Shown here piece by piece: positions 9,001 through 12,000 of a stretch of DNA of 64,000 bases (positions are counted from its first letter, which is position 1; every line of letters starts with the position of its first letter). The stretch lies in NCBI RefSeq assembly GCF_011045215.1, contig NZ_CP049202.1; one strand, given 5' to 3'. The position numbers are program-made. The DNA is from Escherichia coli (GTDB taxonomy: Bacteria > Pseudomonadota > Gammaproteobacteria > Enterobacterales > Enterobacteriaceae).

Positions 9001-12000
9001 ACTGCCAACATTGATGCATCTCCTATACTGCCTGAAACCTCTTTTAACTGGCTGACAGTCACTACATCATTATCATTGACCCCTTCTTTCACCCCTGTTA
9101 TTTGTCGATTACCATCAGTACCACTGACGGTTATTTTCTCGCCGCCACTATTTTTTGCTATTGTCACCTCAGAAAGATTTGAGGATTGCTGAACCAGACC
9201 GACTTTTCCGTCTTCAATGTCTTTTATTCCTGAACTTAACTTATTTATTTCAGTTGTATTCTGGGCAACTTTTTGATTCGTTTCATATAACTGTTTACCA
9301 TTTACAGCATCAGTACTGGTTGCACTGACTGCTCCATCGGCAATCCCTGTTAGAACCCTTTCACCATCCGTCCCGCGAAAATCGACCAGTGCTCCTCCAC
9401 TTCCGGAACCAACAGATATTACTTTGTTGTTTGCATTCTGTTGTACCAAACCACTTTGTCCAGCCTGAAGAGAGTTAATCTTTGATATATTTTCAGTTAA
9501 CGTATTGTCAACAGCAATAAACGCATCCCCCACGTTATATTTACTCTGTCCCTGAATGATATAAACAGGATTTCTGAACTGACTAATATTATCGAATGAA
9601 GCCCCACCACCAAGAGCTGTAGCCACTGAACTCAGGACGGTATTTGTCTGATAAAGCTGACTGCCGGTCACGGCTTCGCTGCTGTCCGCTGCTAGAGTAC
9701 CATCCCGAACGCCGGTCAGGGTACGGACACCGTCCGTACCGGTCAGATCCACTGATGTTCCCCCACTGGCTGCTGCAACGCTGACCACCCGGGATGTCGG
9801 ATCCTGACGTACCAGCCCCACGGAGCCACTGCTGATATTATTCACGTCATTCTGCAGTGTGGTTATATTGCCGGTGTTCGCGGTGACCGAGGTATCCAGT
9901 GCCGTCAGGGCATCCCCCACAGTTGAGCGGCCACTGCCCTGAATCTGATAAGTTGGTGCAGTGAAGGAGCCATCCGTTGCGATGGCGGCCCCGCCACCAA
10001 GACTCTGTGTCAGGCCGGACAGCTGTCCCGTATGCTGTGTCAGTGTCTGCCCCTGGGTTGTGAGGGTTCCGGTGTTGGTGGCGATCGCTGCAGTGTTGGT
10101 GGTCACATTCTGGTTGGTGGTAAAAAGCTGACTGCCGGTCACGGCTTCGCTGCTGTCCGCTGCTAGAGTACCATCCCGGACGCCGGTCAGGGTACGGACA
10201 CCGTCCGTACCGGTCAGATCCACTGATGTTCCCCCACTGGCTGCTGCAACGCTGACCACCCGGGATGTCGGATCCTGACGTACCAGCCCCACGGAGCCAC
10301 TGCTGATATTATTCACGTCATTCTGCAGTGTGGTTATATTGCCGGTGTTCGCGGTGACCGAGGTATCCAGTGCCGTCAGGGCATCCCCCACAGTTGAGCG
10401 GCCACTGCCCTGAATCTGATAAGTTGGTGCAGTGAAGGAGCCATCCGTTGCGATGGCGGCCCCGCCACCAAGACTCTGTGTCAGGCCGGACAGCTGTCCC
10501 GTATGCTGTGTCAGTGTCTGCCCCTGGGTTGTGAGGGTTCCGGTGTTGGTGGCGATCGCTGCAGTGTTGGTGGTCACATTCTGGTTGGTGGTAAAAAGCT
10601 GACTGCCGGTCACGGCTTCGCTGCTGTCCGCTGCTAGAGTACCATCCCGGACGCCGGTCAGGGTACGGACACCGTCCGTACCGGTCAGATCCACTGATGT
10701 TCCCCCACTGGCTGCTGCAACGCTGACCACCCGGGATGTCGGATCCTGACGTACCAGCCCCACGGAGCCACTGCTGATATTATTCACGTCATTCTGCAGT
10801 GTGGTTATATTGCCGGTGTTCGCGGTGACCGAGGTATCCAGTGCCGTCAGGGCATCCCCCACAGTTGAGCGGTCACTGCCCTGAATCTGATAAGTTGGTG
10901 CAGTGAAGGAGCCATCCGTTGCGATGGCGGCCCCGCCCCCCAAAGAGTCGGCAATATTATTAATGTTATTACCGGATTGTGTTAGTGCACTGTTCGTTGC
11001 AAAAAGCTGGCTGCCGTTAACAGCGTCAGTACTGATTCCGGATATTCGTCCGGCTGCAACATTTTGCAGCTGACGTTCTTTCCCTGTATCACCAATACTC
11101 AGGGCTGCTACCGGACTGGTACCTGCGTAGGTATATTCCTTATTATTTATGATACCGGATGTTGTTGCAGTCACAGCGGCTGTTTTTGCCTCACTCCCTA
11201 AAGCCACATCGCCATCATTTGATGAAGATGCTCCCATTCCAATGGCCACACTATTATCGCCCCCGGCATTTGAAACAGACCCCAGAGAAATACTGGAATC
11301 ACCCGCAGCTTCAGCACCGACCCCAATGGCCAGACTGGTCGTCCCGGATGCCAGAGCTGAAACACCAAAAGCCTGAGCTGCAGCACCTGTTGCAGTGGCG
11401 TTACTGCCGAATGCAGTGGAATAGTTTCCTGTGGTATATGCGCCACAACCCGACGCCCATGAATACACACCAAACGCCTCGGGCACAGCATTTGTCACCC
11501 CACCCGTTAACGGCCCTTGATAACCGATGTTATTGGTTGTTGTACCATTACCACTCCAGTTAACTACCGTGGATGAAGTTCCATATGGGTGCATGCCACT
11601 GAATTCAGTATCATTAATAAAACGCTGGTACTGTTCAAATGCCGTTATGGCTCCTGTTGTCACATCAGTTACAGTTCTGCGTCCAATGACATTGTCTGCC
11701 CCACAATAGTCATCATCACCTGCTAAAGTAATCGCCCCATGACTAACATTGGGGTATCCCTGACTGGCAGCAGTAGATGAATAATTTGAAGAACTGAGTA
11801 AGGTTAAGTTAGATGCAGAAACGGAGTATATATATACATATGAAATTAAAAGAACAATAAATTGTACTATAGTTCTACTTTTCATAAGAATTCCTACTAA
11901 AGGTAAAATCATATATAATTAAGTAAATTTAACACAGTATACTAAGTGTAGTGAAAATAATTTGCCTTTTAAGATAAAGTTATATTCCAATGAAGATTAG

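Follow-up and report, generated by a model that had tools for sequence, protein, structure and literature searches.

Analysis of a 64,000-nt stretch of Escherichia coli DNA (contig NZ_CP049202.1 of assembly GCF_011045215.1; "the window" below denotes this whole stretch) reveals a nearly perfect tandem array at 9653-10937 on the minus strand, lying in frame within a gene for a predicted trimeric autotransporter adhesin (TAA). We consider, with a probability of roughly 0.8, that this array is a variable-number tandem repeat in the passenger domain of a plasmid-borne TAA, in which unequal exchange or gene conversion between copies varies the length of the stalk.

Structure of the tandem array

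Tandem Repeats Finder detected a single array with a period of 471 nt at 9653-10937, comprising 2.7 copies with 99% matches and no insertions or deletions, and the repeat search likewise gave a copy spacing of 471 nt; the total length of 1285 nt corresponds to 2.73 copies. In a base-by-base comparison at an offset of 471 nt, the stretch 9653-10466 is identical to its counterpart save at 9708 and 10402, and outside it the identity at this offset is at background (~25-30%). Sequence identity across 1285 nt of this kind is far beyond chance. The copies span 9653-10123 (copy 1), 10124-10594 (copy 2) and, as a partial third of 343 nt, 10595-10937 (copy 3). Copies 1 and 2 differ only at 9708 (A in copy 1, G in the other copies), a synonymous change between the Val codons GTT and GTC, and copies 2 and 3 differ only at 10873 (C vs T), where codon 347 is GGC (Gly) in copies 1 and 2 and GAC (Asp) in copy 3; these are the only two variable sites in the array, and both distinguish copy 1 from copy 3. 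The preliminary description of this DNA had placed near-perfect repeats at 9652-10940, with copies one or two bases apart per 471 bp. The boundaries given above and the pairwise differences of one, one and two bases bear this out, and the offset comparison, with its two differences, speaks against copies that are much more diverged. The same description counted three repeats of 157 residues. The unit does consist of 157 codons (471 = 3 x 157), arranged head to tail with the open reading frame (ORF) intact, but the DNA holds two full units plus 0.73 of another rather than three.

The array has the layout A-B-A-B-A, where A is a segment of 343 nt and B a segment of 128 nt; in gene orientation, repeat finding and offset comparison give the order A3-B2-A2-B1-A1, all on the minus strand. 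A3 (10595-10937), the first copy in this orientation, is predicted to comprise an FGG insert, a coiled coil and a connector with neck, and carries the copy-specific single-nucleotide polymorphism (SNP) at 10873 (plus-strand T), which specifies Asp in place of the Gly of A2 and A1. It is followed by B2 (10467-10594), a predicted coiled-coil linker (FTTNQNVTTNTAAIATNTGTLTTQGQTLTQHTGQLSGLTQ), by the middle copy A2 (10124-10466), by the second linker B1 (9996-10123), which is identical to B2, and by the last copy A1 (9653-9995), which carries the copy-specific synonymous SNP at 9708 (GTT in A1 vs GTC). Beyond the third "SQL" the protein passes into a homologous module that is old and diverged. The possibility of an opposite-strand gene over the array was also considered and rejected, as the ORF list contains no ORF of at least 80 aa on that strand that overlaps the array.

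Module content of the repeat unit

Comparison with solved structures suggests that the 157-aa unit is one stalk module, with the order FGG insert, coiled coil, beta connector plus neck, coiled coil. The unit aligns with the AtaA fragments 3WPA (E = 6.7e-27) and 3WPO and with the SadA fragments 2YO2, 2YNY and 2YNZ, and the matches cover two segments, namely a tri-glycine FGG segment (SLGGGAAIATDGSFTAPTYQIQG...VGDALTALD) and a segment made up of a beta connector and neck (GLVRQD...GGTSVDLTGTDGVRTLTGV...EAVTGSQL). Helical stretches separate the two, and segment B is likewise helical. The solved fragments are known to contain FGG motifs and necks, 3WPA (from AtaA) holding an FGG motif with an exposed tri-glycine loop, and the succession of FGG, coiled coil and DALL-neck is the standard stalk domain of BadA, listed in the daTAA dictionary. 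The name "DALL" for the connector of the present unit is an assignment from its position and its motif (SVGLVRQD). The Gly/Asp replacement at codon 347, the sole non-synonymous difference between the copies, falls in the exposed FGG region.

Variation between isolates

Both the number and the arrangement of units differ between isolates. A protein of 852 aa (P0003; L007, GCA_054853255.1) is encoded by the same gene at 98-99% identity, has one A and no B, and is shorter than the window protein by exactly two units. A hybrid allele (P0005; L008, GCA_012349805.1) also has one A, with the breakpoint inside the module. The metagenome contig Ga0233370_1000055 (L009) starts within the array and reads through a partial A, B and A into the 3' flank, with 100% identity to 10124-10721 of the window over 598 nt, and B-bearing fragments with B-A junctions are present in many E. 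coli draft genomes. In P0138, B is followed by an Asp-carrying A, where the window has Asp in the first copy only, and in an 860-nt contig (L021, GCA_001413995.1) a GTT-bearing A is internal and is followed by a B shortened by 21 nt; both arrangements are absent from the window. The two SNPs that mark the window copies thus recur in other isolates, placed in different copies. Read literally, L021 implies at least four copies of A, with the caution that this is a short-read contig spanning two A copies. The 21-nt deletion in B, seen in some isolates, removes one heptad (NTAAIAT), lies around position 413 of L021 and is flanked by a direct repeat (CCACCAACAC); the equivalent site in segment B of the window is at 10030-10090 and again at 10501-10561. 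Stalk length therefore shows variation at two scales, 7 aa and 157 aa.

Most of the evidence on unit number is drawn from draft contigs, and the window is the only source with an exact count above one. Within this scope, the length variation among isolates that had been proposed for the gene is evident, L007 and L008 having a single A, L009 and many fragments two or more, and the window three, and the copy number is not fixed. On/off phase variation was considered as well and rejected, as the 471-nt unit and the 21-nt deletion are both multiples of three; because this holds for all length changes seen, they alter the length of the protein and not its frame. When the gene served as megablast query, the 5426 complete genomes of E. 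coli and the 72,556 plasmids searched gave no record with the array, only its flanks and a paralogous allele of 767-784 aa, and an exact 23-nt pattern from the unit had no match among the GTDB species representatives and matched one contig in the metagenome collection.

The one-A isolate L007 also carries an insertion of ~1.25 kb (L007 3935-5186) with an rve-domain transposase, ~0.8 kb upstream of the adhesin gene. On the window, the two pieces of its alignment share 9 nt (12691-12699), which looks like a target-site duplication.

The array in genome assemblies

Most public copies of the gene are interrupted at the array. The cluster of the window protein at 90% identity has 71 members; of the 15 that are listed, every one but the window protein itself (14 in all) is partial and broken at the array. 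The N-terminal partial proteins end at the array edge or up to ~30 residues inside it, and the C-terminal ones begin at the 3' edge of the array or within A. Window position 10874 or 10875, one or two bases before the SNP at 10873, is the end point of six independent draft contigs, drawn from different assemblies; this is where a conservative assembler is expected to halt if the genome holds both variants. Two further contigs are 471 nt long: one (L020, GCA_012267205.1) matches a circular permutation of the window unit at 471/471 positions, the other (L019, GCA_022912175.1) is identical to the unit at 469/471, and both are collapsed arrays. The warning in the preliminary description that short-read assemblies collapse this repeat is amply justified by these 471-nt contigs, by the contigs that end inside the array and by the 14 partial proteins among the 15 listed cluster members.

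The first base of the plasmid A record of E. coli C5 (NZ_CP010123.1) lies 32 nt within the array; at its opposite end the record has an unrelated VENN/CdiA-like fragment, and the rest of the adhesin gene is absent from the records of that genome. Window positions 10906-24751 are 99.9% identical to positions 2-13848 of this record, and a section of C5 plasmid B (NZ_CP010124.1) matches positions 40879-61805 with 99.8% identity. There are two possible explanations: a wrong join at the repeat in the C5 records, or a window plasmid that is related to both C5 plasmids or is a cointegrate of the two.

Such behaviour raises the question whether the array, or its count of three, was itself made by the assembler through over-expansion or mis-joining. 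Repeats of this size do defeat assemblers here, with broken or collapsed contigs in dozens of public assemblies, among them the C5 record that begins within the array, and the copy number in the window is known from a single assembly. However, B-A junctions, which need at least two copies, are found at 100% identity in the independent metagenome contig and also in many draft fragments, and the window copies carry distinct SNPs, both of which recur in other isolates, a pattern that simple artefactual duplication would not yield. Because the junctions and the SNPs recur elsewhere, we regard the array as real and an artefact as very improbable, the exact unit number alone being in doubt.

Probable concerted evolution of the copies

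The copies within the window differ by 0.2-0.3%, and outside the array the gene differs from the alleles of other isolates by 0.6-1.8%. Selection at the level of the protein cannot explain the identity of the copies because synonymous sites are identical too, and the observations support recent duplication or homogenisation instead. One might still suppose that old repeats are held identical by purifying selection on the protein, without ongoing recombination, and structural constraints do act on stalk modules; but protein selection does not keep synonymous sites, and over 814 positions there are only two differences, one of them synonymous. Orthologous units of other genes, moreover, differ by ~30%, and copy order and SNP placement vary between isolates, so that this explanation can practically be dismissed.

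Segment B is found only between copies, and therefore simple duplication of a one-A gene cannot give the array. Two chromosomal relatives, TUM12370_16110 (1997 aa, in a record labelled Salmonella Choleraesuis) and a protein from JGI Ga0604899 (1782 aa), both have 6-8 units at the same position, each running from SLGGGA to EAVTGSQL. Self-BLAST shows that these units are 81-97% identical within a gene, and between genes the identity is ~70%. They are 525-588 nt long, longer than the unit of the window through extra 21-nt heptad repeats in the linker. The units of L010 and L011 (the latter labelled Salmonella) have 64-72% DNA identity to the window unit. In the preliminary description the near-identity of the copies was taken to imply recent expansion. 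The recency of duplication or homogenisation stands, given the identity at synonymous sites and the divergence of 0.2-0.3%, but the comparison with the relatives suggests that concerted evolution of an old array fits better than recent expansion, the array of the window being apparently the most recently homogenised or expanded among those examined.

Proposed mechanism and functional consequences

The instability of tandem repeats, both RecA-dependent and replication-associated, is established, and it is the basis of the mechanism that we propose for the 471-nt step. Unequal homologous exchange or gene conversion between homologies of 343-471 nt would add, remove and homogenise units, the exchange taking place on sister plasmids or via slipped alignment at the replication fork, and the gain or loss of a whole unit would keep both the reading frame and the architecture of the fibre. 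The 21-nt steps may result from slippage between the 10-nt direct repeats, with the loss of one linker heptad at a time. Exchange of units and slippage of heptads would each give rise to the pattern seen, in which SNPs are shared between isolates but placed in different copies.

AtaA extends more than 200 nm for 3630 aa; scaled from this figure, each unit would add ~10 nm of stalk, and the result would be a population of alleles that differ in stalk length. The alleles would also differ in the count of repeated surface-exposed connector motifs. Either difference could tune the projection of the head past surface polysaccharide, or the strength with which the fibre binds its ligand. By analogy with characterised TAAs, stalk length or module number probably matters for function: AtaA requires a minimum length, and the repeated stalk domains of BadA bind fibronectin cumulatively.

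The example of BadA leads to the alternative that what matters is avidity and not reach, i.e. that the modules bind ligand and that copy number sets binding strength rather than fibre length. The BadA domains that act in this cumulative way have the same grammar of FGG, coiled coil and DALL-neck, and the only non-synonymous difference between the window copies (codon 347, Gly/Asp) sits in the exposed FGG region; on the other hand, the unit yielded no BadA-like binding motif, for AtaA the requirement is purely one of length, and for Saa, an adhesin of Shiga toxin-producing E. coli (STEC) and the nearest named precedent in this species, adherence is uncorrelated with repeat number. We consider avidity a credible explanation, though an unlikely one. 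The result for Saa also weighs against our preferred interpretation, a repeat whose variable unit number varies stalk length, as an effect of length is thereby not assured, and two further points have to be set on the same side. The source of the one-A allele of L007 is a draft (TPA) assembly, in which a collapsed path is conceivable, a doubt to which L008 is less exposed, its contig crossing A unbroken; and a single assembly underlies the count of three for the window.

Base composition and origin of the array

In its composition the array stands out as foreign within the gene, the one mildly unexpected result of the analysis. Its GC content is 60%, vs 42% for the 3' part of the gene and 47% for the window, and at fourfold-degenerate sites the GC fraction is 0.67 in the array, 0.38 in the upstream (5') part and 0.33 in the downstream (3') part. 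GC changes abruptly at the borders of the array, and the same holds for the one-A allele. In the gene of L010, nt 949-4040 have a fourfold-degenerate GC of 0.80 vs 0.58-0.68 elsewhere in the gene, and in that of L011, nt 535-4694 reach 0.82 vs 0.59-0.64 elsewhere. Compared with the alleles of 767-784 aa at the same plasmid locus, the window gene is 96% identical in the 3' part, 77-83% in the 5' part and ~68% in the module.

These figures can be read as the trace of an imported cassette, i.e. a GC-rich segment from a homologous adhesin gene of a GC-richer genome, amplified after import. The elevated fourfold-degenerate GC of the array, its sharp edges and their presence in the one-A allele agree with such an origin, as does the visible mosaicism of the gene, in which the P0005 hybrid breaks inside the module. 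Yet searches of the 5426 complete E. coli genomes, the 72,556 plasmids and the GTDB representatives turned up no donor, the closest DNA homologues, L010 and L011, reach only 64-72% identity to the unit, and the arrays of the chromosomal relatives likewise exceed their own flanks in GC, so that an intrinsic process could yield the same pattern. Import is in our opinion a real possibility, with the balance tilting somewhat against it; it concerns the origin of the array and is compatible with its being a variable-number repeat.

More speculatively, the array may carry a compositional signature linked to recombination, left by GC-biased gene conversion or, equally, by a mobile GC-rich stalk cassette exchanged among the adhesin genes of different genera and amplified later, and the length of the stalk might be tuned to a co-encoded surface layer, because polysaccharide genes resembling shf, capU and virK adjoin the adhesin gene. 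We regard this combined proposal as improbable; if true, stalk arrays would be a natural readout of recombination bias or cassette exchange.

The adhesin gene and its protein product

The ORF list, the translation and the Pfam matches place the adhesin gene at 8385-11885 on the minus strand (1166 aa), with ATG 11885 as the probable start. The mechanical ORF reaches an upstream ATG at 11912 (8385-11912, 1175 aa). We prefer ATG 11885 because of the Shine-Dalgarno-like AGGA read from the sequence 6 nt before it (11892-11895, minus strand), with no such motif before ATG 11912, and because of the annotated product: the 1166-aa form is present in the protein collection and the 1175-aa form is not. 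The 1166-aa product is an exact match to NCBI QIF16406.1 / WP_164476282.1, "YadA-like family protein [Escherichia coli]", from a 167.8-kb contig. The region upstream of the gene has 25-30% GC and contains one good sigma-70 consensus match, a candidate promoter TTGATA-17-TATATT (12032-12060, minus strand) that was found by promoter scan and agrees with the consensus at 10/12 positions, a consensus match only.

The protein begins with a predicted Sec signal peptide, MKSRTIVQFIVLLISYVYIYSVSA (11814-11885, minus strand), in which the translation shows a charged start followed by a hydrophobic core and a cleavage-like VSA site, the cleavage site being placed by eye. Pfam finds YadA_head repeats near both ends of the protein. 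The N-terminal ones, together with the first neck/stalk motif, cover aa ~150-323 in the numbering from M1 (10944-11465, minus strand; YadA_head 151-242, YadA_stalk 281-323). Downstream of the array in gene orientation lie two older, diverged stalk modules with low third-position GC, one of the FGG type and one of the connector/neck type (8994-9652, minus strand; YadA_stalk 854-896 and 937-973), which were recognised from the translation and the profile of third-position GC as well. They are followed by the membrane-proximal YadA_head repeats with the last neck/stalk motif (8646-8972, minus strand; Pfam 981-1047 and 1053-1089) and by the YadA-like beta-barrel membrane anchor (8388-8570, minus strand), where YadA_anchor (PF03895) matches aa 1115-1175 with E = 1.2e-16 over model positions 1-60 of 60; the C-terminus reads ...GVGYQW. 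YadA_stalk is matched by seven motifs, four at E below 1e-6 and three weaker ones inside the array. The anchor, the stalk motifs and the head repeats together agree with the earlier identification of the gene as a trimeric autotransporter, and by these domains it would belong to type Vc secretion, YadA family.

The whole protein reaches none of the curated NCBIfam cutoffs for Ata, EmaA, Vomp, BimA and YadA: the best score is 302 vs 2500 bits for auto_Ata, and the scores for Vomp and YadA are 151 vs 500 and 67 vs 750. The nearest named TAA of E. coli plasmids is Sab, with ~35% identity over 41% of the query (tblastn). Identity with Saa or Sab was accordingly considered and rejected on the ground of this low figure, Saa having been compared by description only. 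By sequence comparison, the adhesin appears to be an uncharacterised, unnamed member of the YadA family.

Plasmid setting

Conjugative IncF plasmids in cattle and sheep isolates of E. coli and E. fergusonii have a conserved island in common, bounded by insertion sequence (IS) elements, and the gene lies within it. Downstream of the adhesin gene, on the same minus strand, are genes for a Rob-like AraC-family regulator (7180-8085), a PgaB/IcaB-like polysaccharide deacetylase (6164-6994), a GT4 glycosyltransferase (5057-6160) and a VirK/YbjX-family protein (4034-4975), as well as a DUF4056 gene. The order regulator, deacetylase, GT4 and VirK is kept beside the adhesin gene on related plasmids, and we take it to resemble the shf-capU-virK cluster on the virulence plasmids of enteroaggregative E. 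coli and Shigella. Within this region matches stop near one place, the draft contig L018 at 6850 and the match of C5 plasmid A to window positions 1-6976 at 6976, which suggests that 6850-6976, at the 5' end of the deacetylase gene, may be another repeat or recombination boundary.

A commoner allele of 766-784 aa occupies the plasmid locus elsewhere (L001 3968-6271, L002 3641-5995, L006 10377-12680; P0004 cluster, 173 members). It has a single module with a connector that looks degenerate (…APRGMRQDPMSGKSGITATSGETLADLTSHN…), possibly a relic of a deletion or frameshift that joined two modules. P0005 is a hybrid of this allele type and the type found in the window, and E. coli C5 carries both types on one record. 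In pCeylon31IncF (NZ_CP076271.1, L005 15242-17650) the adhesin gene is cut by the IS66-family element ISEc8 at a point equivalent to window ~9250-9300; only the C-terminal ~300 codons are retained, annotated as a separate YadA-family coding sequence.

Significance and comparison with known systems

The true length of this adhesin is hidden in almost every public genome that carries the gene; among the 15 listed members of the 71-member cluster, the window protein is the only one of full length. Pipelines for gene presence and virulence typing will call the adhesin fragmented or absent, and if stalk length or module number affects colonisation, the relevant phenotype escapes short-read surveillance. 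The locus, which combines three units with two marker SNPs and a heptad indel, would also serve as a small and tractable model for concerted evolution in a bacterial surface protein, and it could be used to test whether the GC enrichment of the array is imported or generated in place.

Stalk arrays of BadA (Bartonella henselae) and repeat variants of Saa make this a known phenomenon, of which the present array is a fresh example in an uncharacterised plasmid adhesin. Like the window protein, BadA is a TAA whose stalk repeats modules made up of FGG motif, coiled coil, connector and neck; recombination has made isolates differ in how many modules they have and in what order, and short-read and Sanger assemblies missed repeats that long reads resolved. 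BadA differs in being chromosomal and about 3000-4000 aa long, with 18-34 less similar modules of several types, whereas the window gene has about three modules that are 99.8% identical, is located on an E. coli plasmid and contains an array that is compositionally foreign. What is shared with BadA/Vomp appears to be the grammar and not orthology at the sequence level, as the Vomp score of 151 bits against a cutoff of 500 indicates.

Saa (STEC autoagglutinating adhesin) is, like the window gene product, an E. coli adhesin, and the size of its gene varies between strains through the number of direct repeats. Saa is plasmid-borne and a trimeric autotransporter, with short repeats of about 37 aa. 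These repeats lie near the 3' end of the gene, whereas the 157-aa unit of the window would be a full stalk module. The two systems share ruminant hosts: Saa is highly prevalent in bovine and ovine STEC, and the relatives of the window gene are found on E. coli plasmids from cattle and sheep.

The likeness to AtaA (Acinetobacter sp. Tol 5) and SadA (Salmonella) extends over both structured segments of the unit, with the shared pattern LGGGA...dG...aPtY.i.G....vGdAltaLd in the FGG segment and GLV.Q...v.va...GGt.v...GtdG.R..tGv..G....S.eAv.GSQL in the connector and neck; here too the modules are common and orthology is not indicated (Ata, 302 bits vs 2500). The chromosomal relatives agree with the window gene in overall architecture, in the position of the array and in having units homogenised within each gene, but their units are 525-588 nt long, their copies are 81-97% alike vs 99.8% in the window, and their DNA is 64-72% identical to the window unit.

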